64,000 bases of DNA from an uncultured Candidatus Saccharibacteria bacterium (GCA_964459225.1 CAYWKB010000001.1:116140-180139); one strand, 5' to 3'; shown: positions 24,872 through 64,000, counted from the first letter of the stretch. Program-made: numbers and translations. Notes: a model not told the origin generated them from the sequence alone.

Positions 24872-25867
24872 TTATGGTATTGCTAAACCGGCTGATATTG
24901 CATAGTCTAATGACTCTTCAAATGAAATCTTTGGTACATAATGATCAGATGAAAATACATTTTGCCAGACATTTGCAACTGAAACTTGTATATCTGTTGA
25001 TGGTGAAAGATTAGATATTTGGCTTATATGCACAGCGTCATGTCCAGAAATAATTATTGATTTTATATCATTGCCATTTCCATGTTGTTTCCAGTATGTA
25101 TAAACTTTTTCTATTTCTCTTCTAAGTGAAAAGATACTATCTCCCATTTCCTCTGGTTTTTTGTCTCTAACACTTTCACCACCCCATGAAATGGTAGATG
25201 TAAAACAAACTATTCCATTATAGACAACATACAAACCTGTTTTTTTATTCATTACATGCACTATAAGCTCAGTTTCAAAATTATCATGTGGCACTACCGC
25301 TCTTGCTATGGCTTTTGCTTGAATTTCAAATGAAACCACAGTTAACCCTGAACTTTTAAGTACATTTAAATAACTATTCACCAAGTCCATAGGAGCAACT
25401 GAAACACTGGCATATGTTTTGCCGCTATTGTTTTCATCCAATGCTTGTGGAAGTTTATCAAAAAAGAAAATAGCCTCAGACGCACCAAGTGGTACATTTT
25501 CCTCTAATTTAAATTCGATATTTTGCCTAATTTGTCTTTCATTTGTATCGGGTACTTCAGTTTTAAACAAATACATTCTCTCTTCAGGTAAAGAGGCTTT
25601 AACGGTGTGAATTTTTAACTCTTTAACTAGCGATGTTACTTGTTCTATTAAAGCCTTTTCATCCTTTATATGACCCCCATCAACTATTCCGGGTTTTAAA
25701 AGTCTATTTCCATATCTGTGTAAGGTATATCCATGGCTATTAAAAGAGTATTCAATACACCTCACCGCCTCATCAGAAATATCCAAACCAGCATAAGGAA
25801 TATTTATATATTTTGGTGGTGGAAAAAGTTTAAAAAATTTCTTGGTAAACGTACTCATATTTACCAA
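24872..25867 (-). CDS. pilM: PilM type IV pilus assembly ATPase-like protein (actin fold)
   Basis: 331 aa with an N-terminal GLDISDEAVRCIEYS-type phosphate-1 motif, a length and layout typical of PilM, followed by pilN/pilO-like genes. Confidence 0.65.
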   Translation of the reverse strand: MVNMSTFTKKFFKLFPPPKYINIPYAGLDISDEAVRCIEYSFNSHGYTLHRYGNRLLKPGIVDGGHIKDEKALIEQVTSLVKELKIHTVKASLPEERMYLFKTEVPDTNERQIRQNIEFKLEENVPLGASEAIFFFDKLPQALDENNSGKTYASVSVAPMDLVNSYLNVLKSSGLTVVSFEIQAKAIARAVVPHDNFETELIVHVMNKKTGLYVVYNGIVCFTSTISWGGESVRDKKPEEMGDSIFSLRREIEKVYTYWKQHGNGNDIKSIIISGHDAVHISQISNLSPSTDIQVSVANVWQNVFSSDHYVPKISFEESLDYAISAGLAIP

Positions 25868-40368: not shown

Positions 40369-42039
40369 ATGATTGAATTTGATGAAGACAAGCAAAAAAG
40401 AAAGTTAGGTGACCTTTTAAAAAAAGAGGAGGAAGAGTTAGTACAATTTCTTTCTGCTAAATTTAATATTGATTACATTGATTTATCTGTTAATTCAATT
40501 AGCACTGACGCACTTAGACTTATAGATGAAAAGACAGCAAGAGAAAGGAAAATGGTTGCATTTTCATTGATAGATAAAAAGTTAAAAATAGCCTTAAGAG
40601 AGCCTGACAATGCAAGTGCACTTGAAACAGTAAATGAATTAAAAGAAAAAGGATACATAATAACTCTATATATTTGTTCAACAGCAAGTCTTTTAAAAGC
40701 ATGGAATTCGTACAAGGATCTTTCATTTGCATACGAAAATAAGGCGGGATCACTTGAAATAGCTAGTGACGAAATTTCAAATATAGTTGAGCAAGCGCAT
40801 GATTTACCAAGTATAGCCAAAATACTTGAGGACACTCTTGCAATGAAAAAGAGCTATCGTGTTTCTAGAATATTAGAAACAATAATAGCTGGTAGTCTAG
40901 CAACTGGTGCATCTGACATACATATCGAACCCGAGGAAAACTACATAAGATTGCGATACAGACTTGATGGTGTGCTTGTTGATGTAACTAAATTTGATTT
41001 GGATACTTTTTCACTTTTGCTATCCCGTATTAAATTACTTTCAGGATTAAAATTAAATATAAAAAAGGATGCACAAGATGGAAGATTTAGTGTTCATGTA
41101 AAGGAAATGGATATTGAAATTAGAACATCTGTTTTGCCTGGCGCATACAATGAGTCCATTGTACTTAGAATACTTAATCCTAAATCAATAGGAGTACCTC
41201 TTGAGGAGCTTGGCATACCTGAAAAACTTTTAAATATTATTTTAAAAGAAATAGACAAGCCAAATGGCATGGTACTTACAACAGGGCCTACAGGTTCAGG
41301 AAAGACCACCACACTTTATGCCTTTTTAAAAAAGATTCATAATCCAAAAGTTAAAATAATAACAATTGAAGACCCGATTGAATACCATTTACCAGGTATA
41401 GTTCAAACACAGGTAAATGATAAAGGTTATACATTCTTGGACGGACTTCGTTCTGCACTTAGACAAGACCCTGACATAATCATGATTGGTGAGGTGCGCG
41501 ATAGCGAAACAGCAGGAATTGCAATAAACTCTTCTTTGACTGGACACTTAGTGTTTTCAACATTACACACAAACAGTGCGGCAGGTGCCTTCCCTCGCCT
41601 AATCGATCTAGGAATAAATTCAAAGATTATGGGATCAGCAATAAATATTGTTTTGGCACAGAGACTAGTAAGGAAGCTCTGTAATGATTGCAAAAAACCA
41701 AAAGCAATAGATGAGCATGTAAAACAAGAAATAGATTTGGTATTAAATACTATTTTTGATAAAAGTGTTATACCTCAGCTACCTGCAAATATATTTGAAG
41801 CAAATGGATGTGAAAAATGTAATCAAACTGGTTACAAAGGGAGAGTGGGTATTTATGAAGGTATGAAATTAAATGAAAAAATAAATTCAATTATTGATTC
41901 TAATCCAAGTGAAGGCGAAATAGAGTCAGCATCAGCCGATCAAGGAATATTAACATTAAAACAAGATGGAATTTTGAAAGTTTTGAGTGGAATTACTTCT
42001 ATTGACGAGCTTCAAAGAGTAATTGCTATTGAAGATTAG
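40369..42039 (+). CDS. pilB: type IV pilus assembly / type II secretion ATPase PilB/GspE
   Basis: GPTGSGKTTTL Walker A, ITIEDPIEY, IMIGEVRD Walker B/Asp box, TLHTNSAAG His box, C-terminal Cys tetrad (CNDC...CEKC). 556 aa. Confidence 0.85.
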   Translation: MIEFDEDKQKRKLGDLLKKEEEELVQFLSAKFNIDYIDLSVNSISTDALRLIDEKTARERKMVAFSLIDKKLKIALREPDNASALETVNELKEKGYIITLYICSTASLLKAWNSYKDLSFAYENKAGSLEIASDEISNIVEQAHDLPSIAKILEDTLAMKKSYRVSRILETIIAGSLATGASDIHIEPEENYIRLRYRLDGVLVDVTKFDLDTFSLLLSRIKLLSGLKLNIKKDAQDGRFSVHVKEMDIEIRTSVLPGAYNESIVLRILNPKSIGVPLEELGIPEKLLNIILKEIDKPNGMVLTTGPTGSGKTTTLYAFLKKIHNPKVKIITIEDPIEYHLPGIVQTQVNDKGYTFLDGLRSALRQDPDIIMIGEVRDSETAGIAINSSLTGHLVFSTLHTNSAAGAFPRLIDLGINSKIMGSAINIVLAQRLVRKLCNDCKKPKAIDEHVKQEIDLVLNTIFDKSVIPQLPANIFEANGCEKCNQTGYKGRVGIYEGMKLNEKINSIIDSNPSEGEIESASADQGILTLKQDGILKVLSGITSIDELQRVIAIED

Positions 42040-51218: not shown

Positions 51219-51464
51219 TTTAGTTCTTATTTATATATAAATACTTATTGTTATTATTAGTCCTGTGGATATGGTGATAACTCAATTTTAGCATTATTTA
51301 TAGCGTTATTTTATTAATCTATATTGTTAATAACTTTACCCTATAAACTAATAACTTTTACACATGACTGAATTGTTACTTATTTTTACCTGTTTACAAA
51401 CAGAGCTCTCACAAGTTGTTATGCACTTATCCACCGATTTATCCACTGTTTTGTCAACAAATCC
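51219..51464. other. candidate oriC (dnaA-dnaN intergenic) with DnaA boxes and AT-rich DUE
   Basis: DnaA-box matches TGTGGATAt (51263-51271), TTATCCACc (51427-51435) and TTATCCACt (51439-51447). AT-rich tract at 51219-51262. A further box-like tgttgataa lies upstream of dnaA at 52867-52875. Confidence 0.5.
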
Positions 51465-52811
51465 TCACATCATTGCGCGGATTTGACTGATTTCTTCCAT
51501 AAGTACGGTGTCTGTTTTTAGGTCTTCTTTTATCTTGTCACATGAATGTATAACAGTAGTATGATCTCTACCACCAAGCTTATCCCCTATTGATGGGAAT
51601 GATATATTAAAATCCTCACGTAATATATACATAATAACTTGTCTTGGTTTAACTACTTCCTTTTTTCTTGTTTTATCAAAGACACTATCTTCACTTATAT
51701 TATAAAAGTCAGAAATAAGCTTAATAACATCCTTTGTTGATATGTTTTTCTTTTGTTTTGTATTGTTTTTAATTAGGTTTTTGATTTCAAGTAATGATAA
51801 TGGGCGATTTTTTAATTGTGTTTGACAAACAATAGCATTTACAACACCCTCTAACTCACGAACATTACTTTCGATATTTGCAGCAAGGAATTCAAGTATA
51901 TCTGATTTTAAATCTACATTACTCATTAGGCTTTTAGCCTTTAAAATAGCCATTCTTGATTCATGATCTGGTGTTGGAATATCAATAATCATTCCCTGAT
52001 TGAAACGAGATTTCAATCTATCTTCAAGTCCGGGTATAAAGTTTGGGTGTTTATCAGATGAAAACACTAATTGTCTATTTGTTTGGAAGAAAGTTTCAAA
52101 TAAATGGAATAATTCTTCTTGAAATTTTTCTTTATTAGCAAAAAACTGAATATCGTCCATAATAATCACATCATATTTCCTATATTTATCTTTAAATTTC
52201 TGTGTTGTATTGTTTTGTAGTGATGAAAAATATTCAGAACCAAATCTTTCTGATGTTAAATAAAATACTTTTTTCTGAGGAAAATCTTTTTTAATATGAT
52301 TTCCTATTGCCTGTATCAAATGAGTCTTTCCATGTCCTGTATTTCCGTAAATAAATAAAGGATTATATGAAGAGCCTGGATTTTTAACTACTGATCGTGA
52401 TGCTGCATGAGCAAGCTCATTAAATGGGCCAACAACAAAACTATCAAATACATATCTAGGATTTAAATTATCATCTCTATTAACATAAAAATCAGAAAGA
52501 GGCATAGAGATTGTAGGGCTTATTTGAGCCTTCTTTTTTTCCTCTTCCTTTCTCTTTTCTGCATCTTTCACTATTATATATTCCAATCCCCTCACCTGCT
52601 CATTTAACTGTCTTAGTGTTTTAAGTATTGTATTGTGAAATTTCTTATACAACCACTCTTGAATAAATGAATTTGGAACTCCGAGATAAATAACACCGTC
52701 TTCGTTTTTAACTATATATGTTCCATTGAACCAAGTAGAAAAATTTGCTTTAGAAACTGCTAATTCTATATCAACAAGTGCTTTTTCCCATAATTCAATG
52801 TAGTCTTTCAT
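51465..52811 (-). CDS. dnaA: chromosomal replication initiator DnaA
   Basis: NPRYVFDSFVVG, GNTGHGKTHL Walker A, IIMDDIQF, C-terminal DNA-binding domain (RDHTTVIHS). 448 aa. Confidence 0.95.
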   Translation of the reverse strand: MKDYIELWEKALVDIELAVSKANFSTWFNGTYIVKNEDGVIYLGVPNSFIQEWLYKKFHNTILKTLRQLNEQVRGLEYIIVKDAEKRKEEEKKKAQISPTISMPLSDFYVNRDDNLNPRYVFDSFVVGPFNELAHAASRSVVKNPGSSYNPLFIYGNTGHGKTHLIQAIGNHIKKDFPQKKVFYLTSERFGSEYFSSLQNNTTQKFKDKYRKYDVIIMDDIQFFANKEKFQEELFHLFETFFQTNRQLVFSSDKHPNFIPGLEDRLKSRFNQGMIIDIPTPDHESRMAILKAKSLMSNVDLKSDILEFLAANIESNVRELEGVVNAIVCQTQLKNRPLSLLEIKNLIKNNTKQKKNISTKDVIKLISDFYNISEDSVFDKTRKKEVVKPRQVIMYILREDFNISFPSIGDKLGGRDHTTVIHSCDKIKEDLKTDTVLMEEISQIRAMM

Positions 52812-52906
52812 GTGAATAGTATATACTTTTTTAAAAATTGCAAAACTTGTAAAAAGTTTATAAACATGTTGATAAGTTGTTAATAATGATATATACTGTT
52901 TTCACT

Positions 52907-53041
52907 ATGTCATTTACATATAAACCAAAGAAAAGAAAGAGAGCAAAGACACATGGATTCCTTGTTCGTTCAAAATCTTCTACAGGACGCAGAGTTTTGA
53001 AAAGAAGAAGAACAAAAGGACGCAAAAAGATCTCTGTGTAA
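52907..53041 (+). CDS. rpmH: 50S ribosomal protein L34 (44 aa; not in ORF track)
   Basis: Hand translation: [44 protein letters not shown]. Classic L34; divergent from dnaA and followed by rnpA. Confidence 0.85.
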
Positions 53042-53053
53042 TAAGCATCAAGT

Positions 53054-53389
53054 ATGTTAAATAAGTCTAAAAGACTAAATACAGCTTCATTTATTAATAT
53101 AATCGAAAAAGGACAGTCATTCCACGGTCCTTTTTTGATTATTAGAGCAAAAAAGAGTGATACTAAGAGTAGATTTGCTGTATCTATACCAAAAAAGGTA
53201 GCAAAAACAGCGGTTTTAAGAAATAAATTAAAAAGAAGAGTATTTAGTATTATTAAAGAGTTAGAATTATCGTTATTACCAAACTTTGAAGTTATTTTGA
53301 TTGCTAAAAACGGTATTGATAAGCTTGATTTTGTTGAATTAAAATCAGAGATTACAAAAATCTTTGTTAAAATAGGTATTTTAAAGTAG
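53054..53389 (+). CDS. rnpA: RNase P protein component
   Basis: 111 aa basic protein with an RnpA-like KLKRRVFSIIKE motif, in canonical rpmH-rnpA-yidC order. Confidence 0.75.
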   Translation: MLNKSKRLNTASFINIIEKGQSFHGPFLIIRAKKSDTKSRFAVSIPKKVAKTAVLRNKLKRRVFSIIKELELSLLPNFEVILIAKNGIDKLDFVELKSEITKIFVKIGILK

Positions 53390-53399
53390 AATACACTCT

Positions 53400-54131
53400 A
53401 TGATTTCATATTTATATAATATTGCTATATTTAAGCCGCTTTATAATGGTTTGATTTTTGTTTTTGATGCATTACCATGGATTGATGCTGGTTTTGCTGT
53501 TATTTTATTTACTATTTTAGTTAGACTTATACTATTCCCTATTTCAAAAAAGGCTACAGTTACTCAAGTAAGAATGAAAGAAATTGAGCCAGAATTAAAT
53601 GAATTAAAGAGAACAATCACCGATAAGCAGCAACAAGCAGTAATGGTTATGGATTTATATAAGAAAAAAGGCGTCAATCCTTTTTCTAGCTTCTTATTAT
53701 TATTTATTCAATTACCTATTATATGGGCTCTTTACTCAATATTTATGAAGTCAGGATTACCTGTTGTTAAAACAGACATTTTATATAGTTTTATAAGTGT
53801 ACCAACTATAGATATGAGTTTCCTTGGTATATTTGATATTGCCAAGAGTAGTATTTTCCTTGCTGTTTGTGCAGCTATTGCGCAGTATCTACAATTACAC
53901 TATTCGTTTTCAGCAAATTCAAAAAATACAAATACAATAGGACAAAATCCAACTCAAGACATGGCGCAAAATATGATGAAAAATATGAAATTTATATTTC
54001 CAATAATGGTATTTTTCATTTCATATAAAATATCAGCAGTGGTTGCTATATATTGGACTATTAGTAGTTTATTTACACTAGGACAAGAGTTGGTGGTAAG
54101 GAAACATATAAGAGATCACAAGCCTATATAA
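53400..54131 (+). CDS. yidC: membrane protein insertase YidC (short form)
   Basis: 243 aa: LFTILVRLILFPIS and QLPIIWALY motifs of the YidC/Oxa1 core. Confidence 0.85.
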   Translation: MISYLYNIAIFKPLYNGLIFVFDALPWIDAGFAVILFTILVRLILFPISKKATVTQVRMKEIEPELNELKRTITDKQQQAVMVMDLYKKKGVNPFSSFLLLFIQLPIIWALYSIFMKSGLPVVKTDILYSFISVPTIDMSFLGIFDIAKSSIFLAVCAAIAQYLQLHYSFSANSKNTNTIGQNPTQDMAQNMMKNMKFIFPIMVFFISYKISAVVAIYWTISSLFTLGQELVVRKHIRDHKPI

Positions 54132-54132
54132 T

Positions 54133-55407
54133 TTAATTGTTTAAATCTAGTGACCAAGCAGTTAAATCTCTTTTGTTAATAAAGTATAGATAATCTTCAT
54201 TTGTATCAAGCGATAAGTCAGTCGCATCTATTATCTTATTTGATAGAGATGTGAGATTTGCAAGCAAATGAACCTCCCCTGTTGCTGTATCTAGATGCCA
54301 TATTTGATCTACAAAACTCACATTACCCTTATACCAATCATCTGGATAGGTGTAATTAGTATTTATTTCATTTGGGACGGCACAATAAACCTCATTTTTT
54401 CTTTTTGTACTCCAGACACATTTATCTGCTATTGTTCTAAATACTATTTCTTGATCTGTATTGTCTTTTGTATTATATATTTTTGTTATTATATTGCCTT
54501 TATCTGTAGATGAATATATTATTTTTGATAAATCTCTATTTGCCTTTGCTACCAATCCTTTTATACCACCTAATACCTTTTTCATTACCCCATTTTTTGT
54601 ATCAATTAAGTAAAAATAACCAGACAATAAAGCACTACTTTTTGTTGTGATACTTACAGTATTTGTCTCCGGCCAATCAAGCACAACTTGTCTAATAGGG
54701 GTTTGTGCTATTTTGATTTTATTTTTCTCATCAAAAGATGATATATAACCTACCCCATTTCCTGATTCAATAGACCAAGTAAATATTCTGTCTCTATTTG
54801 GTGAATTTATTATTTGATTTATGTTTTGAGAAATGTATTTACCCTTAGTTTCATAAGGTGTAACTGTTGTTGATGTGCCAGTAGATCGGAGTTCTGCATA
54901 AAAATTTGTTATTGTATCTGTCTCATCTCTTAGATATCTTGTTACAAATGCATTTAAGTTTTTATTGAAATAACTTTCATATGTTTTAGGTAATGTGGTA
55001 TTTGATATTTTAATAATATCCATTTTTGAACTATTTACCTCATATATATGACCAGTTCCCCTATCTATATATCTAGCTATTGAAGTTGTAGCTGTACTAC
55101 TTGCAGCAAGACCAGAAACAGGCATTGTACTTATCTGTCTTAATGCGGGTATTTTGATTTTACTTTCTACTACAACTTCCTCTTCTACTGTATTTTTAAT
55201 ATCTGTACTTGTACTATTGTTTAAATTAGAGTTATTTGTTTTTGTACTTCTATCAAAAGAAGAAAATCCCTCCCCTACAGTTGTGCCATCTGTATTTACA
55301 ACTGTATCTGGTCCAGTACTCCTTAAATATATATACCAATATACCAAAGCTCCTATAGAGCCTAGTATGAGTATTGATATGATGACAATGAGTATTTTTT
55401 TGAGCAT
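54133..55407 (-). CDS. secreted/membrane-anchored hypothetical protein (S/T-rich linker + large beta-rich domain)
   Basis: N-terminal TM/signal anchor, 424 aa, no motif. First gene of the minus-strand block that ends in T4SS components. Confidence 0.45.
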   Translation of the reverse strand: MLKKILIVIISILILGSIGALVYWYIYLRSTGPDTVVNTDGTTVGEGFSSFDRSTKTNNSNLNNSTSTDIKNTVEEEVVVESKIKIPALRQISTMPVSGLAASSTATTSIARYIDRGTGHIYEVNSSKMDIIKISNTTLPKTYESYFNKNLNAFVTRYLRDETDTITNFYAELRSTGTSTTVTPYETKGKYISQNINQIINSPNRDRIFTWSIESGNGVGYISSFDEKNKIKIAQTPIRQVVLDWPETNTVSITTKSSALLSGYFYLIDTKNGVMKKVLGGIKGLVAKANRDLSKIIYSSTDKGNIITKIYNTKDNTDQEIVFRTIADKCVWSTKRKNEVYCAVPNEINTNYTYPDDWYKGNVSFVDQIWHLDTATGEVHLLANLTSLSNKIIDATDLSLDTNEDYLYFINKRDLTAWSLDLNN

Positions 55408-55408
55408 G

Positions 55409-56572
55409 TTATTTCTTAAGTTTTGCGTTGATTAGCTCCATCTTTCCTATAAGGATATTTTTATACTCAGTTTCAGTAAGACCTGATTTTTTCATCTTAT
55501 CTTTATTATCTATGTCGACTATATAACCATCTAATTTTTTTTGTAGTGACTTAGTGTTATTAATTATGACTCCTCTTGTCTGTGATCCTGTAACTGTTTC
55601 TGTGCCGTGGGTAGATACTAGGTTGTTTAACTCAATCTCATCTCTTATCTGCTCAATATAGAAATCCCTCTGTAATCCAAGTGTTCTTGCTGATTCTGGA
55701 TCGGTTGAAATTATTTCATTGATTTTTTTATTATATGAATTTTGTATTATATTTGGCGTATCTGTTGGGTATTTGCCATCTACAAGGGAGTTTGCTTTTG
55801 AACTATCTACATATGAAAGTATTGATTTATCACTCTGTATTTTTTGATGAATAATATCATTAGCATCTCTGTAGTTATAAGCACCTAAACCTTCTGCTAT
55901 TAATTTGCTTTGCTTTGTGCTAACAATTTTTAATTGATTTTTAGTATTTTCTAGATCTGCTATATATTTTGGTATCGAATCAGCATCTATTTGACCGCTC
56001 TCCATTTTTTCTTCCAATTCCCTTTTCTTTTTTTCGAGTTCAACACGCTGAGCCTCTAACTCATTTACCCCAAGTTGTTTTTCCATCGCTAACTTACTCA
56101 AATCATTTGTTAGTCGATTCCTAAACGCAATCGCATCTTCTGTCCTTATCTCAACCCTCGGTAACTCTGTATTTACCGCCACTAATCTTGGATCTATTGT
56201 CTGTAATATTAGATATGATGCTAATACCATAATCAAACCAATTATTGCATCCCATATTTTTGACTTCCCATCTGATTTTAATGATGGTATTTCACTTGTC
56301 ATGTATTCAAAACCTCCCCAAATAATCATTATCACAGCAAGAAATACTGATAATGCAATTGAAAATCTAAATACATATGAAATATAGTCATCAAATTTGA
56401 TTTTAGGTATTGTTGTACCAAGCACACATGGCTTTCCCCCACTCTCTACACCCTCTATGCATGGAACTGGTTCAAGAAATTTATATGTATCTGATGTTGC
56501 GCTGTTTTGCGCAGAAGAAATGTTCGGTATGAGGACTAATGTTAATGCTATTGTTAAAATAAGTTTTTTCAT
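55409..56572 (-). CDS. signal-peptide protein with two hydrophobic helices plus long coiled-coil C-terminus (pilin/TrbC-like N-terminal architecture)
   Basis: Signal peptide MKKLILTIALTLVLIPNISSAQ, a Cys pair, then two TM helices (FRFSIALSVFLAVIMIIWGGF and IIGLIMVLASYLIL), then a KE-rich coiled coil. Confidence 0.45.
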   Translation of the reverse strand: MKKLILTIALTLVLIPNISSAQNSATSDTYKFLEPVPCIEGVESGGKPCVLGTTIPKIKFDDYISYVFRFSIALSVFLAVIMIIWGGFEYMTSEIPSLKSDGKSKIWDAIIGLIMVLASYLILQTIDPRLVAVNTELPRVEIRTEDAIAFRNRLTNDLSKLAMEKQLGVNELEAQRVELEKKKRELEEKMESGQIDADSIPKYIADLENTKNQLKIVSTKQSKLIAEGLGAYNYRDANDIIHQKIQSDKSILSYVDSSKANSLVDGKYPTDTPNIIQNSYNKKINEIISTDPESARTLGLQRDFYIEQIRDEIELNNLVSTHGTETVTGSQTRGVIINNTKSLQKKLDGYIVDIDNKDKMKKSGLTETEYKNILIGKMELINAKLKK

Positions 56573-56574
56573 AA

Positions 56575-57597
56575 TTAAAATGTTATTTCATTATCTACAT
56601 TTTGATTTTGCTTTTTACTAAAGTATACAGTAAATCCTGATCTCGCGCCCTGTAGTATGTTATCAGTATTTCTAACGTCTAGATTTATATTTGAACTACC
56701 GTCCACATCCCCTTTTACTCGCACCGTTATGCTCCTGTTTTCTATTAAATCATTTTGCTGAATATTATTTATTGACCATGCATAAGAGTTTTTGATGCTA
56801 TTAAATCCAAAAGGAATAGCGATTATTTTCATTTCTGAATTATTGAGCGGTACTCTACCGTTTAAAGATTTATTGTATAGTATTCCGTATAATGCATCAT
56901 TTTCATAAAATGAAAGACTTGGATCAGTTGGTTCTATATTAATACTGCCAAATGTTGAATCTGTTTGTTCACGATTGTATACCTCGACTGAGACATTTAA
57001 TGGTTTCGGTATTTCACTTCCTCTGATTTCTACATATTGTTTTCCATACCCCTGTCCATTTTCAATATACTTACCATCACTTTTCCATGAATACACCAAT
57101 GTTTTTGGGTCTAATTCATTTTTACCATCTTTTGATATATGAGGCATTGCAATTAATCTAACTTTATTTTGATAGGTATATGGAATCTTTGATTTATAAA
57201 ATGGATGCGAGTATCCTTCAGATTCAAGTATTATTTCAACAGAACCAGTTTTTATTGTTACTGATTTTCTTGCTTCTAAACCATCAGATGAACTCACTAC
57301 TGCTGTTATGGTCATAACTGAACCCACCTTTGGAGCGGTTACGGAGATTTTTTTTATTCCTATTCCCTTTTCTTGAGTCTTTCCATTTACTAACCAAACA
57401 ATTGATGAAGAATTTAAATCAATTAAATAACTTTCTAAAGTTATGTCTACATTTTGTCCCGGTCTTGGATTGTCGGTACTTTTATTTATAGTTAATCTAT
57501 CTATACCATTTGGAATTTGAGCATGTATATAATGTGTATTTCCATAAAATACACTTAAAATTAGAATAATTATCGATAATTTAAATATCAATTTCAT
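56575..57597 (-). CDS. secreted hypothetical protein
   Basis: Signal peptide then a 340-aa beta-rich sequence; no motif. Confidence 0.45.
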   Translation of the reverse strand: MKLIFKLSIIILILSVFYGNTHYIHAQIPNGIDRLTINKSTDNPRPGQNVDITLESYLIDLNSSSIVWLVNGKTQEKGIGIKKISVTAPKVGSVMTITAVVSSSDGLEARKSVTIKTGSVEIILESEGYSHPFYKSKIPYTYQNKVRLIAMPHISKDGKNELDPKTLVYSWKSDGKYIENGQGYGKQYVEIRGSEIPKPLNVSVEVYNREQTDSTFGSINIEPTDPSLSFYENDALYGILYNKSLNGRVPLNNSEMKIIAIPFGFNSIKNSYAWSINNIQQNDLIENRSITVRVKGDVDGSSNINLDVRNTDNILQGARSGFTVYFSKKQNQNVDNEITF

Positions 57598-57623
57598 TAA
57601 ACATATTTTAACATACTTATTTA

Positions 57624-58061
57624 TTATTCAGTTAATGAGATTTCCTCAGAATCACTCTTTTTATTTGGCATTCGTATTCCCGGAGTTGAATTTACTGGAT
57701 TTCTGATTTTGCGAGGTAATCTTACGCCTGGTTTGGCGGTATTTGATAATGCTCCACCATCTCCTTTTGTTGTATGTTTTATATACCAAATATCCATTAT
57801 CCATGCGGGTGCCACACCTCCTGTTAATTCCTCTACTCCCGCAATTCCAAGCATTGAAATTAATCTACCGGGATGTGTAATCACTGAAACACCGTTGTAT
57901 TCTAAATATATTATGAGTGAAATTCCAACTAAAGGATCTAATATTCCATTTATTATTACCCCAACACCAGTCAAACCAAGCAATATTTGAGTACTGTCTA
58001 TAAAAGCTGTAACACCATATAGCATTTTCCAATTTACCTTGTTACCCTCTTGTTCTTCCAT
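57624..58061 (-). CDS. hypothetical small membrane protein (two hydrophobic helices)
   Basis: 145 aa, immediately upstream of the VirB4-like ATPase. Could be a VirB2-like pilin component but there is no motif evidence. Confidence 0.35.
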   Translation of the reverse strand: MEEQEGNKVNWKMLYGVTAFIDSTQILLGLTGVGVIINGILDPLVGISLIIYLEYNGVSVITHPGRLISMLGIAGVEELTGGVAPAWIMDIWYIKHTTKGDGGALSNTAKPGVRLPRKIRNPVNSTPGIRMPNKKSDSEEISLTE

Positions 58062-58062
58062 G

Positions 58063-59886
58063 CTATTTTGTATTATTTGAAGCCATCTCTAAATCTTTTT
58101 TGGCTTGATTTATTGCCATAACTTGAGCTGGGTTTGTGGTAATGATTTGATCTTCTGTATATGAAGCAACAACTTTTAATGCTACATGCTTTAAGCCCAC
58201 AAAGAATATTCCCTCCCCCACATCTGATTCTAGTAATAGATATTTTTCTTCATCTGTAAGATTGAATGTTCTTTGAATATTGTCTATTGATGATGGTGAT
58301 TGTTTTAGAAGTATTTGTATTGAAGAGTTTGTAATAATAGGTAAACCATAAGGAGATTTTAGGAAATCATCAACGTCCTGGGTGATTGTTGCAAGTCCCA
58401 AATAATATTTACGTCCTCTCTTTGCAAGTCCAAGTAAAAATGATGCCGTATCCTCTGATTTCATCATCCACCATGCCTCATCAATAACCAAAAGTCTCTT
58501 TTTCAACTCTTTTCTAATTGCATTCCATATATAGTGAGTAACTATATACATTGCTACTGGTTTTAACTCATCTTCCATATCACGAAGTGAAAATACAACG
58601 AATTTTTTATTTATATCAACATTTGATGGTCTATTTATAAAGCCTGACCATGTACCCTTTGTGTATTTTGTTAATCTTTCAACCAATGATTCAGCACCTT
58701 CCATGCCTGCTAGAACAAGTTCAAAATCAGAAAGAAGTGGTGGTTCAACATTTCTAAAATCTGATTCAGGGCTAATATCTTTTAATGCATATGTTTCACT
58801 TATTGCCCTATCTATTATGGCGTCTTCTTCTTGAGTTAGTCCTCCAAGCATAATTCTAAACAAACCAACAAGATTAATTATGTTTGAACGTAATACATCT
58901 GCCGCACTCTCATCCTCTCTTGGTATTGGTAAATCAAAAGGATTAATATGATGCTCTGAGTTAAGTGAAATATTAAAGTATTTACCACCAGTTGCTTCAG
59001 CCATGTATTCGTATTCTTTTTCTGGATCAATAACTATAACTTCAGTATCAAACATCAATGTTCTAAGTATTTCTAGTTTTGTACAATATGATTTACCTGA
59101 ACCGGCCTTTGCAAAAGTAACTGAATTGTAATTTTCAAGTAAAAATCTATCAAACAGCACAAGTGATGAATTATGTCTGTTGATTCCATAAAGTATTCCC
59201 TTATCAGAAGTTAGGTCAAATGAAACAAATGGGAAAAGACTAGAAAGAGGCGAAGAATTAAGCTTAGAATGAACCGCCAATTGATCATCCCCTATTGGTA
59301 GCACACTCTTGTACCCGCTTTCCTGTTGGAATAGTGCTGGTTTAATGTATACGAGTTTTGATTCCAGTATTGATTTGATTTCAGACTCTATCTTATCTAA
59401 TTCAGCTGTGCTATCTCCGAAAATAGTTATATAAACTCCCACATCAAATATCTTTTCTTGTGCCTGCATCAAATTGTCTCTAAGTGCCTCAAGATCTTGA
59501 TATGCGGTGTCTAGCATAGGGTCACGGACTAATCCCTTATCTTCCCTAGTTGATATTTGACTTTGTACCTCGGCTACCTTTTTTTGAAAATGTCTCAATA
59601 TCTTTGCTGTATCAACTGGATGTATAAAAATAGAAATATTAAAGATTTTATCCAGGTTAATGATTGGTGCAAACCAACTCTCAGTCAAAAACCTTGGATA
59701 TGAAATAACAAAAAATGTTCTCGCCACCTTTTCACCCAAATTTATCTCTTTTGGACTTATCTTTAATGCAGAAGGTGCTATAACATCTTTTAATTCAAGT
59801 ATTCCTGCCTCATATATTTCTTGAGGCATAAGAGATACTATAGGTGACTTTTCTTTTTTACCAAATAATTTTGAAAATATACTCAT
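58063..59886 (-). CDS. VirB4/TrbE-family type IV secretion ATPase, C-terminal ATPase part
   Basis: AKAGSGKSY Walker A, LLVIDEAWWMM Walker B, GLATITQDVDDF, QILLKQS. 607 aa. Confidence 0.8.
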   Translation of the reverse strand: MSIFSKLFGKKEKSPIVSLMPQEIYEAGILELKDVIAPSALKISPKEINLGEKVARTFFVISYPRFLTESWFAPIINLDKIFNISIFIHPVDTAKILRHFQKKVAEVQSQISTREDKGLVRDPMLDTAYQDLEALRDNLMQAQEKIFDVGVYITIFGDSTAELDKIESEIKSILESKLVYIKPALFQQESGYKSVLPIGDDQLAVHSKLNSSPLSSLFPFVSFDLTSDKGILYGINRHNSSLVLFDRFLLENYNSVTFAKAGSGKSYCTKLEILRTLMFDTEVIVIDPEKEYEYMAEATGGKYFNISLNSEHHINPFDLPIPREDESAADVLRSNIINLVGLFRIMLGGLTQEEDAIIDRAISETYALKDISPESDFRNVEPPLLSDFELVLAGMEGAESLVERLTKYTKGTWSGFINRPSNVDINKKFVVFSLRDMEDELKPVAMYIVTHYIWNAIRKELKKRLLVIDEAWWMMKSEDTASFLLGLAKRGRKYYLGLATITQDVDDFLKSPYGLPIITNSSIQILLKQSPSSIDNIQRTFNLTDEEKYLLLESDVGEGIFFVGLKHVALKVVASYTEDQIITTNPAQVMAINQAKKDLEMASNNTK

Positions 59887-59891
59887 AATAA

Positions 59892-60524
59892 TTAATTAAT
59901 TTGAATAGGCTTTTCGGTTTCACCTGGATTGAATATTTTATAATATAATTCTACCACCTCCTCAGTCCCTAGTTCAGCAACTCTTATTCCACATCTTACC
60001 AAACCTTGCTCAACTACCCCTACCCTCTGCTCCAATTGACTGCGGTATTCCTCAAATTTTTCATTTGCGAGTAGTTTGTTTTCTTCTTTTTTATTTATCA
60101 ATGATTTAATCGGATTACTACTCATTGTGATTGGCGGAGCAAAAGGTATTACAAGGAAAAATCCTTTAGTCATAATATTGCTGTTATCAACAAATGTTTT
60201 AATGAATTCGATGTATTCTCTTGTCTGTATTTTCATTAATTCTGTCATTTGCTCTTTATATCTTTCCTCAAGTAAGGCAATATATGGCCTTATATCAAGT
60301 CTTTTTGATTGTATGAAAATTTGAATAGAAAAGTCCAACGAATTAATAAAATTTTGAAATTGTGAAATTATGGCATTTTGTTCATCTGATGATTTGAGGG
60401 CAAAGTTTAATGATGATGCCAAAATGATTGATCTCATAGAACCATCTTTTAATATCACTATTCCATCACGAATCTCTTGAATGGGTACAAATTCTTGTGT
60501 TGTTTTTGTATTATTTTGAGCCAT
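59892..60524 (-). CDS. VirB4-family N-terminal domain encoded as a separate ORF
   Basis: VPIQEIRDGIVILKDGSMRSIILASSLNFALKSSDEQNAIISQF matches the N-terminal signature of Gram-positive-type VirB4 (TcpF/PrgJ-like). Stop TAA, 5 nt, then ATG of the ATPase ORF in a different frame. Confidence 0.6.
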   Translation of the reverse strand: MAQNNTKTTQEFVPIQEIRDGIVILKDGSMRSIILASSLNFALKSSDEQNAIISQFQNFINSLDFSIQIFIQSKRLDIRPYIALLEERYKEQMTELMKIQTREYIEFIKTFVDNSNIMTKGFFLVIPFAPPITMSSNPIKSLINKKEENKLLANEKFEEYRSQLEQRVGVVEQGLVRCGIRVAELGTEEVVELYYKIFNPGETEKPIQIN

Positions 60525-60525
60525 A

Positions 60526-60951
60526 TTATTTTTGATTTTTATTACTATACATACTTTCCTTTATATCCAAACTCCAAGTTAAGTCTTTCAATTTGCTGTC
60601 TGAAATTTTAGGTACCATTATTCCGGCGTATTCTTTTGCTTCTTGTATTGCATTATCTGCTTTTTGATTTGGAACCTTTTTCCAAAGGAAAAGCTTGGCA
60701 GATGTATAGTATTTAAATGCTGCCTCAACTACATTTATAAATGGTTTATTGTTTATTTTATAAAATGCAAGCGAAATAGAAAAAGCCATTATTAATAAAA
60801 TAGGAATTCCAGATAATAATATTGATGGTAAAAATTTATAAATTATAAAAGATAACCCTGCCCCACCAGCTAGATAAATGAATTGTTTTAATGTTAATGG
60901 GCCAAATATTTTATCCTCAACTTCAATAAATTGTGGAACTTGATATCGCAT
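60526..60951 (-). CDS. PrgI/TcpE-family (VirB3-like) T4SS membrane protein
   Basis: MRYQVPQFIEVEDKIFGPLTLKQFIYLAGG followed by two TM helices; canonical position directly upstream of virB4. 141 aa. Confidence 0.55.
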   Translation of the reverse strand: MRYQVPQFIEVEDKIFGPLTLKQFIYLAGGAGLSFIIYKFLPSILLSGIPILLIMAFSISLAFYKINNKPFINVVEAAFKYYTSAKLFLWKKVPNQKADNAIQEAKEYAGIMVPKISDSKLKDLTWSLDIKESMYSNKNQK

Positions 60952-60981
60952 GCAAATATTATATCACACACATGTTATCTA

Positions 60982-61698
60982 CTATATCTGTTCTCTGTAT
61001 GGATCTGCAGTATTGTTTGTATTTTTATCTATTTTTTCCTTTATTTCTATTTTCTTTTCCACCACCCTTTCCTTACTGTTAACTGGAGAGTTTAATAAAT
61101 GATCGATCATTGAAACACTAGGTATGTTTTCTGGTTCCTCTATACCCTTTAATACTTCCTCTTTATTGATTTCTATATTTTGAGCAGGCACACTTGCCTT
61201 TTCAATAGTAAAATCCCCTACTTTTTCGATATTGGGTATATCCTTTACTATTTCCGGTGGGTGCATATATGTTGGGATTGTGGTGACAACGGGATTAGGT
61301 TTTTTGATTGGTGCTGAATATATAGGTGTTGGGGTTTTAGGGGCTTCGGGTTCGTTGAATTGTACATTATCTGTATTATCCGAATCACCTGACTCTCTAA
61401 GCGATGATCTTATTTCGTCAAATATTTCCCTGTTTACATCCTTGGCTATATTAAAACAAACGTCACTACCCAAGTTCATTTTTTTTGATATGTTTGGAAC
61501 AAAATTTTTTTGCGAAGTAGCTCCTAGTATCAACAATACAATTTCATCAGTAAGTATTGCCTTATTATCAACCATTAGATTGTATTTGTCTGAGATAGCT
61601 CCTATTTTTTCAGGTAAATCTGTAGAAGTAATAACGTCTTTCAGATTATCTGGAAGTTTGTTAAATAATTCAATTTTTTGTTCTTTTGTGTATTCCAT
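60982..61698 (-). CDS. hypothetical T4SS-cluster protein (two domains, Pro-rich linker)
   Basis: 238 aa with no motif. Positioned between the VirB6-like and PrgI-like genes, where VirB8-like (TcpC/PrgL) proteins often sit. Confidence 0.4.
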   Translation of the reverse strand: MEYTKEQKIELFNKLPDNLKDVITSTDLPEKIGAISDKYNLMVDNKAILTDEIVLLILGATSQKNFVPNISKKMNLGSDVCFNIAKDVNREIFDEIRSSLRESGDSDNTDNVQFNEPEAPKTPTPIYSAPIKKPNPVVTTIPTYMHPPEIVKDIPNIEKVGDFTIEKASVPAQNIEINKEEVLKGIEEPENIPSVSMIDHLLNSPVNSKERVVEKKIEIKEKIDKNTNNTADPYREQI

Positions 61699-61704
61699 AG
61701 ATTT

Positions 61705-63657
61705 TTAAAATACAATGTTTGTCTTTAAATAATTTTGTGATTTTTCAATTACAGAGCCTTTGGTTGGGAAAATATATGAATCTATAATATTTCTGATATC
61801 CTCTCTAACCGTCTTGTCCACATTAGCATTAGCAATAGCTTTCAACATTGCCGGATCAAGATATTTTGCAACATCTCTTTGTCTAAGTATATCTTCAGGT
61901 AGCTTCGATACATCCTCAGGTCTACCTTTAAGGTGAGTATTGATTAAGTAATCTCCCGAATTACCATTGTTGGTTACAATCTTTTTAAATCCATCAGTAC
62001 GTGCGTTCTTTATTTTTGATTTCTGATCAGGTGTCAATTCATCACTTTTAATAAGTGATTCAAACTTAGAAGATGATAGGTGTGTGATAAAGTCCTCATT
62101 AGAAAGTGTATCGAAAGGTAGTTTTTCCAATTCCTTATTATCCATTCCAGAAACACTATCTTTAAAAGATTTTAGTATTACTGGACTAACTCCCCCACCA
62201 GTTTTTAAAGCATCCAAATAAGTTTTTAAATTTTTAGAATTTGTTGCGGTTCTAGATATTCCAGCCAGTGTTTTAGCTCTCTCTTTATTTTCCTTATCAT
62301 AATCTTCAGTTGATTTGCTCCCACCGTACTTTCCTTTTGCAGCTGTGTTTATACCACCCCTCACTGCTTGGCTTATACCCAAACCTCTCAATACATTTGT
62401 GGCGGCTTTACCTACAGGACTTTTCTGTGCATTTATTGCCATATTATCAAACCTTTTACCTACAGCACCAGCTGCTTTACCAACAGTCTTCCTACCAACA
62501 AATCCACTTATGTTACCAAGAAGACCTGTAGCCATATCTAATCCCGGTGCCCACTTTGCTCCAACCGCACCAAACTTAAGCGCTGCGATTAACGGTGCAT
62601 TTATAAAAATAATAGCGATAATGTATTGAATAGTCACACCGATAGAAGTTACTCCAAAAGGCCCCTCACCTGGCGGTATTACTCCATTTGAATTAGCTCC
62701 ACTATTAAATATTGAATTAAAATTAGGACTACTTATTAGTCTAAGAGCTATATACATAAGACAAAGATACACAGGTAAAAATAATAGCTGACTAGTAAAC
62801 ATATCTTTTAGTCTTTTAGATACCTCCTGCTCTATTTGTGGAAATATCATTCCAACAAAGTAAAATGGTGATAATGCCATTAAGAAAAGCAGTATTCCTG
62901 TTCTTGCAAATATGGCAATTCCAGCAGCAAAAAAGCTAAATGCAGCAGTTATCATCATAATCACCCCACTTATTGTTGCGATGAAAATAGCAAGTCCAGC
63001 ATCAGCACTTTGTAAAACTGAGGTATTTTTATATATCTGTGGAATTTTGAGACTACTCATAAATACATCTGACAGTCCACCATTTGTTGCAGAAGCAACT
63101 ATACCCGCATTAGCGTTCACATTTGGTACCATTGCTCTATAAAACTGCATGGATACTAGATTTGATGCATCTATACCAACTCTCACAAAAAATAAACTGA
63201 AATTTATTAGCATTCCAGCTATAATTATATTAAATATAAGTTTTTTGGTTGTCTCTACACCTGATCCAATGATTATCGATATTGAGCTGTATATTAAGAA
63301 AAATATTATAAAAATATTTGAGATATTTCTAACGGTTTTCCATGTCTCCCCTATTACCGGCATATTTGTATCTTTTGTATAATCACCGATATTCAATGTA
63401 AGTGTTATTGCTTGATTTAAAAAGTACCCTGAAATTGACAATAACCATGAAGTTAAACTCAATAAGGCATTACCAATAGCAGCTGCTGCATTATTGATAC
63501 CACTTAAAGCTATTCTTTCAACTATAGTTACTTTACCTTCTGTATTATCCTTTCCACCTTGTTGTGCATGTGTATATACAGGAATAATAAAAATTAAAAT
63601 AGCAAAAAATACCATTGATATTATTGCTATTTTGTTTTTATTAAATAAATTCTTCAT
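61705..63657 (-). CDS. VirB6/TrbL-like polytopic T4SS membrane protein with signal peptide and long hydrophilic C-terminus
   Basis: Signal peptide, at least 6 TM helices across about 400 aa, then a roughly 250-aa K/S/G-rich hydrophilic tail. 650 aa. Confidence 0.6.
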   Translation of the reverse strand: MKNLFNKNKIAIISMVFFAILIFIIPVYTHAQQGGKDNTEGKVTIVERIALSGINNAAAAIGNALLSLTSWLLSISGYFLNQAITLTLNIGDYTKDTNMPVIGETWKTVRNISNIFIIFFLIYSSISIIIGSGVETTKKLIFNIIIAGMLINFSLFFVRVGIDASNLVSMQFYRAMVPNVNANAGIVASATNGGLSDVFMSSLKIPQIYKNTSVLQSADAGLAIFIATISGVIMMITAAFSFFAAGIAIFARTGILLFLMALSPFYFVGMIFPQIEQEVSKRLKDMFTSQLLFLPVYLCLMYIALRLISSPNFNSIFNSGANSNGVIPPGEGPFGVTSIGVTIQYIIAIIFINAPLIAALKFGAVGAKWAPGLDMATGLLGNISGFVGRKTVGKAAGAVGKRFDNMAINAQKSPVGKAATNVLRGLGISQAVRGGINTAAKGKYGGSKSTEDYDKENKERAKTLAGISRTATNSKNLKTYLDALKTGGGVSPVILKSFKDSVSGMDNKELEKLPFDTLSNEDFITHLSSSKFESLIKSDELTPDQKSKIKNARTDGFKKIVTNNGNSGDYLINTHLKGRPEDVSKLPEDILRQRDVAKYLDPAMLKAIANANVDKTVREDIRNIIDSYIFPTKGSVIEKSQNYLKTNIVF

Positions 63658-63660
63658 ATT

Positions 63661-63981
63661 TTATATTCCAGTTAAGGTATTTGGAAATAACTGACATTCC
63701 TGTAACATTCTCTGTGCTTCTTGATTCATTGGATTTGTCTTTGCAACTATTGCATCGTACTCATCCTTTGAAGCTTGCACATCTTGCAGTGTTGCTATTG
63801 TCCTGTTTTGTATCATTGCTGAGTATTTTTGACTTGGTGCATTTAAATCATTAAGTGAATTTGCTGTTGTTATACTTGTCTTTAATAATGTTAATTCCGA
63901 TAATCTACCATCAGCTAACTTTGCAGAACTAAATAGTGTTGTGGCCTGTGGAGCTAAATCAGTATTTATTTTACCAGTCAC
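63661..63981 (-). CDS. hypothetical protein (first gene upstream of VirB6-like)
   Basis: 106-aa ORF with no motif; a possible upstream T4SS accessory protein. Confidence 0.35.
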   Translation of the reverse strand: MTGKINTDLAPQATTLFSSAKLADGRLSELTLLKTSITTANSLNDLNAPSQKYSAMIQNRTIATLQDVQASKDEYDAIVAKTNPMNQEAQRMLQECQLFPNTLTGI

Positions 63982-64000
63982 TAGCTCTATTTTACTATTT

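Follow-up and report, generated by a model that had tools for sequence, protein, structure and literature searches.

A chromosomal, probably non-conjugative type IV secretion gene cluster beside dnaA in a Patescibacterium

A 64,000-nucleotide (nt) stretch of DNA from an uncultured Candidatus Saccharibacteria bacterium (GCA_964459225.1, CAYWKB010000001.1:116140-180139; hereafter the window) carries, on its minus strand from position 54133 to its edge at 64000, a compact block of genes that a first-pass annotation read as a type IV secretion system (T4SS) of the Gram-positive type. Does this block belong to a mobile element, to a conjugation apparatus whose other genes lie elsewhere, or to a resident machine of an ultrasmall cell? 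Our analysis indicated that it is very probably a chromosomal, non-conjugative T4SS gene cluster of the ultrasmall Patescibacteria (candidate phyla radiation, CPR), adjoining dnaA. It most likely represents an 11-gene operon derived from the conjugation machinery of monoderm bacteria (MPF_FATA), from which the relaxase and the coupling protein were lost. Judged by analogy with Southlakia epibionticum, whose homologous system is essential, the machine would probably serve epibiotic interaction with a host cell, by protein exchange or by uptake of host material, and not conjugation. The cluster is real and well conserved, and the finding is correct but not new, since papers of 2023 and 2025 describe the system (PMC10633639, PMC12102498); the locus exemplifies the Paceibacteria arrangement of the Patescibacteria T4SS, for which the loss of the relaxase and the proximity to dnaA have already been published (PMC12102498).

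The ORF listing bore out the compactness of the block: nine complete minus-strand open reading frames (ORFs) occupy 54133-63657 with gaps of 1-30 nt, and a tenth runs off the window at 64000. The block does not end at the window edge. A Logan contig (L001), 100% identical to the window over an overlap of 12,296 nt and reaching 9.6 kb past position 64000, carried it 2.2 kb further and showed that 63661-64000 is the 3' part of a 540-aa gene, beyond which come a 300-aa gene and, next, ksgA. The unit comprises 11 co-oriented genes over ~12 kb, bounded by ksgA/uvrD on one side and by yidC/rnpA/rpmH/dnaA on the other, and all 11 ORFs are intact and tightly packed. In operon order, the genes are as follows.

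Past 64000 (on L001), minus strand: g300, a 300-aa bitopic protein, encoded upstream of g540.
63661-64000, minus strand: 3' end of g540, a 540-aa Sec-exported protein (full gene at window-equivalent 63661-65283, L001 8375-9997; sequence taken from L001).
61705-63657, minus strand: extended VirB6-like polytopic protein, 650 aa, with a signal peptide, 6 transmembrane segments and a hydrophilic tail of ~290 aa by hydropathy.
60982-61698, minus strand: g238, a protein free of transmembrane segments, in which a variable Pro/Lys-rich linker joins a conserved N-domain to a near-invariant D-P-Y-R-E motif at the C-terminus.
60526-60951, minus strand: PrgI family protein (VirB3 equivalent), 141 aa.
59892-60524, minus strand: TrsD-like protein, a free-standing VirB4 N-terminal domain, 210 aa.
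58063-59886, minus strand: VirB4 ATPase, C-terminal catalytic part, 607 aa.
57624-58061, minus strand: g145, a small polytopic membrane protein (2-3 transmembrane segments by hydropathy) with a basic Pro/Asn-rich tail.
56575-57597, minus strand: g340, a Sec-exported protein with a signal peptide.
55409-56572, minus strand: VirB2-like pilin with a long C-terminal extension, 387 aa.
54133-55407, minus strand: g424, the last operon gene, with an N-terminal transmembrane anchor (residues 2-29), a disordered linker (30-85) and a predicted extracellular 7-bladed beta-propeller.

Within the window, the block encodes a split VirB4, PrgI/VirB3, an extended VirB6-like protein, one long VirB2-like pilin and five proteins that belong to no family; the whole block includes six lineage-specific proteins, four of which are exported or membrane anchored with external domains. 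The gene list of the first-pass annotation had to be amended at two places, as it omitted the 210-aa gene at 59892-60524 and counted two secreted proteins between the small membrane protein and the pilin-like protein, where only one (56575-57597) is encoded. Its estimate that about half of the proteins fall into no recognisable family was borne out by searches of Pfam, NCBIfam and PDB sequences.

Profile searches of Pfam and NCBIfam were run with curated cut-offs, and topology was read from hydropathy analysis. For comparison, one genome per GTDB species was scanned, which yielded at least 590 relatives. The best 80 loci, chosen by VirB4 similarity and with VirB4 identities of 78-97%, were used for synteny and identity, and all block and flank proteins were compared with them by tblastn, identities being those to the window proteins.

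Three proteins of the window block exceeded the curated cut-offs, namely VirB4, PrgI and the pilin. VirB4 scored 370 bits against NCBIfam conju_CD1110 (cut-off 325) and 93.6 bits against Pfam P-loop_TraG, and its nucleotide-binding motifs are intact (Walker A GSGKS at 262, Walker B LLVIDE at 465). Other NCBIfam models gave lower scores (VirB4_plasma, 256 bits with a cut-off of 590; CedB, 33 bits with a cut-off of 700). On these profile matches, VirB4 is assigned to the monoderm CD1110/MPF_FATA group. The PrgI protein scored 42.3 bits against Pfam PrgI (cut-off 27), and its gene, found in 79 of the 80 loci, stands one gene upstream of virB4 with the TrsD-like gene in between. The annotation had named both proteins correctly. 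The 210-aa protein that it had passed over matched the N-region of VirB4_plasma (E 2e-11) and TrsD (E 2e-9), in both cases under the NCBIfam curated cut-offs, and has a precomputed PF26593 (TraC-like) assignment. Because it matches the N-terminal region of VirB4 models together with TrsD, we regard VirB4 as split into two genes. The TrsD-like protein is encoded by a separate gene in 79 of the 80 loci, and its family hidden Markov model (HMM) matches the N-terminus of fused VirB4s on Clostridium plasmids.

The pilin-like protein had likewise been recognised by its build, which comprises a signal peptide, a hairpin of two transmembrane segments (67-126) and a coiled-coil or variable tail of about 260 aa. 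It scored 27.2 bits against Pfam T4SS_pilin (PF18895, cut-off 26.6) over residues 73-125. Its match to the NCBIfam Mbov_0395 pilin-like model (E 1.3e-3) stayed under the cut-off of 40 bits, and BLASTP aligned it with an annotated Mbov_0395-family pilin-like protein of a Pontibacillus plasmid (40% identity, E 3e-10). A single long copy per locus was found in 60 of 64 loci (median 350 aa), the conserved part being the hairpin only.

For the VirB6-like protein, the annotated topology with a signal peptide and a long tail (~290 aa) was recovered, whereas a direct VirB6/TrbL profile match of the protein itself was not: it had no direct match in Pfam, NCBIfam or PDB-sequence profile searches, and hhalign found no detectable similarity to a CD1112-family VirB6. 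Among 31 syntenic orthologues, Pfam TrbL/VirB6 was the sole family with matches in more than one (3/31, best E 3.9e-5). The family profile also matched a polytopic protein of 779 aa whose gene lies upstream of those for PrgI and VirB4 on the Pontibacillus plasmid (hhalign Prob 90%, E 1.7e-6; hmmsearch E 1.2e-11), and both topology and gene position fit a VirB6 role.

We found no sign of mobility around this machinery. Pfam recognised no relaxase family, no coupling protein (VirD4, TcpA or FtsK-type ATPase) and no integrase or recombinase in window ORFs of at least 100 aa, nor were any present among the called genes of the next 9.6 kb on L001. In 1-52811, the scan of such ORFs returned only housekeeping families, including aminoacyl-tRNA synthetases, thymidylate metabolism, ribosomal proteins, RuvABC, Pol I and PBP1, together with type IV pilus genes. 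A search for att-like flanking direct repeats gave none better than imperfect AT-rich chance matches, and the GC content of the block (0.30-0.34) equals that of the rest of the window. The annotation had noticed no integrase, relaxase, VirD4 or att repeats in the window, which these scans confirmed, and the absence of VirD4 and relaxase extends through the 9.6 kb beyond it. An integrative and conjugative element (ICE), which it had named as the alternative to its reading, does not account for a locus with no relaxase, type IV coupling protein (T4CP), integrase or att repeat and with a fixed position in 80 genomes. A prophage-like island or an ICE was ruled out by the lack of mobility genes and of repeats, the host-like GC content and the fixed synteny.

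A related proposal, that the block is the decaying remnant of an integrated conjugative element after the loss of its mobility genes, would explain both an ancestry from monoderm conjugative systems and the missing relaxase, T4CP and integrase. It is effectively refuted by the 11 intact and tightly packed ORFs, by the intact Walker motifs, by a GC content equal to the host background, by an identical synteny in 80 species-level genomes with a constraint on VirB4 stronger than that on DnaA, and by the essentiality of the homologous system in Southlakia epibionticum.

Conservation of the block beside dnaA in relatives, which had been put forward as a check, was indeed observed. The block occupies the same site in 80 of 80 species-level genomes, and wherever the flank suffices the order is identical: uvrD-ksgA-g300-g540-B6-g238-prgI-trsD-virB4-(g145)-g340-pilin-g424, then yidC-rnpA on the other strand, then dnaA-dnaN. 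The g145 gene was recognised by tblastn in 13 loci, and an ORF with 2-3 transmembrane segments (median 158 aa) follows VirB4 in 59 of 69. Similarly, an ORF free of transmembrane segments lies between the VirB6-like gene and prgI in all 60 of 60 loci, at the slot of g238.

The degree of conservation differs markedly along the locus. Median identities were 83% for VirB4, 65% for the TrsD-like protein and 59% for PrgI in the block core; 61% for DnaA, 56% for UvrD, 54% for DnaN, 48% for KsgA and 47% for YidC in the flanks; and 27-35% for the exported and membrane accessory proteins. VirB4 identity exceeded that of DnaA in all 50 of 50 genomes, by a median of 21 identity points, and that of DnaN in 48 of 48; VirB4 is more conserved than UvrD, KsgA and YidC too. 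A caveat to this comparison is that VirB4 similarity had served to select the loci. We interpret this pattern as one of differing evolutionary rates on a vertically inherited locus, with a slow ATPase and fast exposed parts. Transfer of the whole block would raise identity in all block genes, yet the accessory genes are more diverged than the flanks, which argues for vertical inheritance; the fast evolution of g340, g424 and g300 fits exposure to hosts. Since the gene order beside dnaA is fixed in relatives and VirB4 is more conserved than DnaA, the block is a vertically inherited core machine and not a mobile element.

These data also bear on the idea that the block still works in conjugation, its relaxase and coupling protein being either encoded at another site in the genome or diverged beyond recognition. 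The portion of the genome examined is 64 kb plus 9.6 kb only, and the published survey of Patescibacteria supplies a point that counts against our own reading: the T4CP often lies far from virB4, VirD4-like genes being present in 2,918 genomes and mostly not near virB4 (PMC12102498). We nevertheless judge active conjugation highly improbable. Relaxases occur in just 103 of 3,035 Patescibacteria genomes, and in Southlakia epibionticum the T4CP homologue is non-essential while the T4SS is essential (PMC12102498). Furthermore, a VirB4 so extremely conserved when set against DnaA, at a fixed position in the core genome, is unlike what conjugative systems show, and no oriT-like or mobility gene was found in the window or the adjoining 9.6 kb.

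At least 8000 close homologues of VirB4 were found, and all of those with a source name are labelled Patescibacteria, Paceibacterota or Taylorbacteria. From the names carried by these homologues, the organism is taken to be a Patescibacterium of the Paceibacteria type. The titles of the 80 loci read Paceibacterota, Parcubacteria, Taylor-, Zambryski- or Wolfebacteria, together with many automated titles of metagenome-assembled genomes (MAGs) that read 'Saccharibacteria'. Many MAGs with a Paceibacteria-type locus are titled 'uncultured Candidatus Saccharibacteria bacterium', with VirB4 78-97% identical to that of Paceibacterota, Taylorbacteria and Zambryskibacteria; these titles are probably automated mislabels.

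The first-pass annotation likened the block to the chromosomal, host-interaction T4SSs of CPR bacteria, and both the VirB4 assignment and the literature (PMC12102498, PMC10633639, PMC12857230) agree with it. Quinonero-Coronel et al. (2025) examined 3,035 Patescibacteria genomes and described a monophyletic VirB4 clade nested in MPF_FATA, with TrsD, PrgI/VirB3, VirB6 and PF18895/VirB2-like pilins near virB4 (PMC12102498). In Paceibacteria and Microgenomatia, the commonest virB4 neighbours were dnaA, dnaN, rnpA, ksgA and rpmH, which was interpreted as a possible gene-dosage effect (PMC12102498). The locus analysed here shares with that clade the monoderm-type VirB4, the separate TrsD-like gene, PrgI/VirB3, the candidate VirB6-like protein, the PF18895 pilin, the chromosomal position among dnaA, dnaN, rnpA, rpmH and ksgA, and the lack of a relaxase or T4CP nearby. 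We found no essential difference, and the survey has no names for g300, g540, g238, g145, g340 and g424 (PMC12102498).

The sole experimentally tested relative is the T4SS of Southlakia epibionticum ML1. Using transposon sequencing (Tn-seq), Wang et al. (2023) found that epibiotic growth requires this system (SEML1_0006-0019, which begins five genes from dnaA) together with its pilin array, both being essential, and the cluster is without recognisable coupling and relaxase proteins (PMC10633639). Before the Patescibacteria T4SS, no T4SS had been shown to be essential to the bacterium that carries it (PMC10633639; reviewed in PMC12857230), and work on the Patescibacteria system is summarised in a 2025 review (PMC12857230). 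Like the locus here, the Southlakia cluster adjoins dnaA and encodes VirB4, PrgI, a VirB6-like protein and PF18895 pilins but no recognisable coupling protein or relaxase, and a small unannotated gene between those for VirB4 and PrgI occupies the slot of our TrsD-like gene. The two loci differ in several respects. Southlakia has six short pilins (SEML1_0014-0019), in keeping with the arrays of 2-11 short pilins of Saccharimonadia (PMC12102498), whereas one 387-aa long-tailed pilin is encoded here; its cluster contains internal lysozyme/CHAP and peptidase genes and an NTF2-like (VirB8-like) protein, none of which was recognised here; and it lies on the dnaN side of dnaA, while the present locus lies on the rpmH/yidC side. 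Conversely, no counterparts of the propeller, Ig-like and g540 genes were seen in the Southlakia gene table.

Outside the CPR, the closest plasmid VirB4s are from Firmicutes and Actinobacteria, with identities of at most 35.9% among the matches listed. The best plasmid E-value (3e-102) belongs to VirB4 of the Pontibacillus sp. ALD_SL1 megaplasmid, whose 33.9% identity is the second highest among those matches. This megaplasmid (NZ_CP062975, ~351.8-361.4 kb; L084 2492-12045) encodes, in the same order as here, two pilin-like proteins, the 779-aa B6-like protein, PrgI-like and TrsD-like proteins and a split VirB4, which match the family HMMs built here with E values of 5.6e-11 to 5.8e-131, and neither VirD4 nor a relaxase was found in the 15.8-kb stretch examined. 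It differs in being plasmid-borne and from a Firmicute, in the 1050-aa M23 peptidase that follows, and in having no g300, g540, g238, g145, g340 or g424. Judged by these profile matches, the Pontibacillus locus is the closest non-CPR counterpart found. The occurrence of pilin-like genes in a monoderm T4SS outside Patescibacteria is noteworthy in its own right.

More distant are the CD1110/CTn2-type plasmids of Clostridium, Paenibacillus and Brevibacillus. They share the order VirB6-PrgI-VirB4-small ORF and a VirB4 of the CD1110 family, within a fuller arrangement of VirD4-(small ORF)-VirB6-PrgI-VirB4-cell-wall hydrolase (one plasmid has an extra ORF before or after VirB4). Neither the VirD4 (CD1115) immediately upstream nor the large SLT or NlpC/P60 hydrolase after VirB4 is kept here, and the same holds for the relaxase, which is annotated on one of these plasmids and indicated by MOBP typing on two others, the Brevibacillus plasmid being typed non-mobilizable. 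Moreover, their VirB4 N-domain is fused, they have no pilin, and their VirB4 is only 29-33% identical to that of the window. In comparison with the T4SS of Mycoplasma ICEs (Mbov_0395 pilin-like, Mbov_0397 VirB4), the VirB4, TrsD-like and pilin matches of the present locus were all under the cut-offs (590 and 40 bits), and the Mycoplasma systems sit on mobile ICEs, unlike this one.

A T4SS that keeps its pilin and ATPase without T4CP and relaxase might also work in reverse, like ComB of Helicobacter pylori or the archaeal Ced, and import host or environmental DNA as a source of nucleotides. The VirB2-, VirB3-, VirB4- and VirB6-like parts recall the composition of ComB (PMC12857230), Patescibacteria are without de novo nucleotide synthesis (PMC10633639), and in the class ABY1 the T4SS co-localises with comF/recG/radA (PMC12102498). 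At the present locus, the conserved upstream neighbours include a UvrD-type helicase, and comM is about 6 kb distant; however, ksgA stands between uvrD and the block, so the uvrD linkage may be mere housekeeping synteny. The weak match of VirB4 to CedB is likewise far under its 700-bit cut-off, and the type IV pilus genes of the window could themselves serve uptake. In S. epibionticum, competence needs type IV pili and ComEC, and deletion of comEC abolishes transformation but not viability, while the T4SS is essential (PMC12857230); DNA uptake is therefore unlikely as the essential role. Taking both sides together, we regard a competence machine as unlikely, and an epibiotic, host-directed T4SS as the better explanation.

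The g540 protein combines a conserved Cys-rich N-domain with a C-terminal bundle of long helices, and is encoded directly upstream of the VirB6-like gene. Its family is large (5,591 representatives at E<=1e-3; 2,456 at E<=1e-30), and some orthologues carry extra C-terminal Ig-like, discoidin or PKD domains. In g540 homologues of 47-55% identity, Pfam DUF4141 matched residues ~16-60, a segment running from the last part of the signal peptide through the first mature helix, at 25.6-38.3 bits; three of the eight tested were over the 30-bit cut-off, and a precomputed PF13605 (DUF4141) assignment was present on 17 of 120 homologues. One orthologue in the 31-member scan gave a weak NCBIfam TrbJ match (E 0.017). 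The mature N-terminal consensus of the family is V-x-D-x-x-N-x-x-Q, which we take to resemble the N-terminus of TrbJ/VirB5. Among the conjugation proteins of Bacteroides transposons, TraG is the equivalent of VirB4 and TraJ that of VirB6. In gene tables of Bacteroides conjugative transposons, DUF4141 proteins are listed beside traJ and close to traG (PMC10434189), and the main text of the 2025 survey names VirB5 only for one MPF_T-type genome and never mentions DUF4141/PF13605 (PMC12102498). An AF2 model of g540 had a pLDDT of 70.9, with confident helices at residues 344-532 and low confidence in the conserved Cys-rich N-domain. We consider g540 a candidate VirB5/TraI-like component, a lead and not a result.

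Of the remaining accessory families, g424 was also modeled. AF2 with a 120-sequence alignment returned a mean pLDDT of 89.2, so that structure prediction for this protein, which the first-pass annotation had described as beta-rich, gave a confident beta-propeller; its Foldseek matches in the PDB (E about 1e-9 to WD40, TolB and acylaminoacyl-peptidase propellers) were generic to the fold only. Its profile found nothing significant among PDB sequences, and two of 31 orthologues gave weak PD40/DUF5050 matches. The gene was found in 59 loci at a median identity of 34% and 97% coverage. The g340 protein, present in 75 of the 80 loci, had no Pfam or NCBIfam match, and its profile weakly matched the Ig-like phage Hoc protein (E 0.005) and phage decoration proteins (E 0.29, 1.1) among PDB sequences; it probably consists of about three Ig-like beta-sandwich domains. 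A TSP3-type calcium-binding repeat was detected in g300 (25.1 bits, cut-off 25), whose profile found no relative among PDB sequences. The g238 protein, presumably cytoplasmic given its lack of a transmembrane segment, had no relatives in Pfam, NCBIfam or PDB sequences, and in 52 of 62 orthologues its D-P-Y-R-E motif lies 2-4 residues from the C-terminus. This motif looks like a short docking peptide. Finally, g145 had no family match in Pfam or NCBIfam.

From these components, a working mechanism can be proposed. VirB4 hexamers would be held at the membrane by PrgI and the TrsD-like protein and docked on the VirB6-like platform, where they would pull pilin out of the membrane and power its polymerisation into a pilus-like tube that crosses the cell wall. 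Exported g540 may nucleate or cap the tube, as VirB5 does in diderm systems; the Ig-like g340, the tethered propeller g424 and g300 could form an envelope scaffold or a host-contact surface; and g238, via its conserved C-terminal DPYRE peptide, may act as an adaptor at the ATPase. A bolder version, possible but doubtful, is a true pilus-building monoderm T4SS in which g540 is a VirB5-like nucleator or tip, the long-tailed pilin forms a decorated conduit to the host, and the DPYRE protein replaces the coupling protein as substrate adaptor. If this were true, Patescibacteria T4SSs would gain a defined accessory core outside the current T4SS profile sets.

Several observations weigh against the interpretation of the locus as a host-directed T4SS. 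The VirB6 label of the 650-aa protein depends on indirect homology through its relatives. The Pfam score of the pilin is marginal, 0.6 bits over the cut-off, and to our knowledge no pilin known to polymerise has anything like its 260-aa tail. Neither Pfam nor NCBIfam recognised a VirB8-like (NTF2-fold) protein or a cell-wall hydrolase (VirB1-like) inside the block, VirB8 being rarely detectable across Patescibacteria (PMC12102498). The case for a VirB5-like g540 is weak: no DUF4141 match at E<=1 was found in the protein of the window lineage itself, the match in its homologues partly covers the signal peptide, the g540 profile retrieved no VirB5/TraC/TrwJ chain from PDB sequences at E<=10, and Foldseek of the model against the PDB returned generic helical bundles only (E>0.03, query-normalised TM-score <0.25). 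In addition, the functional evidence comes by analogy from a different class (Saccharimonadia), whose locus differs in its pilins, its NTF2-like protein and its internal hydrolases.

The window offers no new kind of system but a clean, complete Paceibacteria example with defined boundaries. The additions of this analysis are small, namely a g540 family with a DUF4141-type N-terminus, the g424 propeller, the g238 DPYRE motif and the Pontibacillus counterpart. Its residual value lies in the catalogue of accessory genes, six conserved families that standard T4SS profiles miss; in the comparison of VirB4 with DnaA, where the higher conservation of VirB4 is a quantitative sign of constraint; in the DUF4141 lead for g540; and in the Firmicute plasmid homologue, which might be genetically easier to study. 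Patescibacteria make up a large share of bacterial diversity.

On the dnaA side, the block is followed by these features.

53400-54131, plus strand: yidC, the boundary gene (precomputed Pfam 60KD_IMP).
53054-53389: rnpA, beside yidC (precomputed Pfam Ribonuclease_P).
52877-53041: rpmH, read from the translation of a 54-aa ORF, with no profile match.
51465-52811, minus strand: dnaA (precomputed Pfam Bac_DnaA).
51219-51464: dnaA-dnaN spacer of 246 bp, with three one-mismatch DnaA boxes at 51264, 51427 and 51439.

From the end of the block it is 1.3 kb to the dnaA start codon and about 2.7 kb to the three boxes in the spacer, and the annotated closeness to dnaA and its boxes (~3 kb) stands to this extent. 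The adjacent oriC that had been annotated with them is a different matter. We infer an origin next to the block only from the dnaA/dnaN/rpmH synteny and the local box cluster; it is not demonstrated, because the window as a whole has no more DnaA-box matches than chance predicts (25 found versus 25 expected) and the GC skew follows the coding strand, with no origin signal across the window. Upstream of dnaA and on its strand, the T4SS operon, ksgA and uvrD together span at least 15 kb and are transcribed toward the presumed origin, head-on with replication, while rpmH-rnpA-yidC, between the operon and dnaA, is co-directional with it; the whole layout is kept in all loci. This head-on layout bears on the published gene-dosage idea. 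A promoter and terminator scan of the operon was uninformative, promoter-like sites being fewer than in shuffles.

On the other side, the order beyond g300 on L001 is ksgA, a UvrD-type helicase, a divergent LysM-M23 peptidase, comM and a dksA/traR-type zinc-finger gene. The gene for the LysM and peptidase M23 protein (L001 3247-4347, window-equivalent ~69311-70411) lies on the opposite strand, three genes and ~3 kb upstream of the block, and was detected there in 11 related loci as well. No cell-wall hydrolase was recognised in the block itself, and this gene could supply one as the VirB1 analogue.

Two further features of the window were recorded. Type IV pilus genes are present, encoding a PilM-like protein (24872-25867, minus strand) and a PilB/T2SSE ATPase (40369-42039, plus strand, 391 bits); since they share the window with the T4SS block, the genome has both type IV pili and a T4SS, as reported for Saccharibacteria. 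The isoleucyl-tRNA synthetase (254-3772, minus strand, 1172 aa) has an embedded Pfam His_Phos_1 domain (108.7 bits, residues 519-669) that splits its catalytic domain, an unusual fusion.

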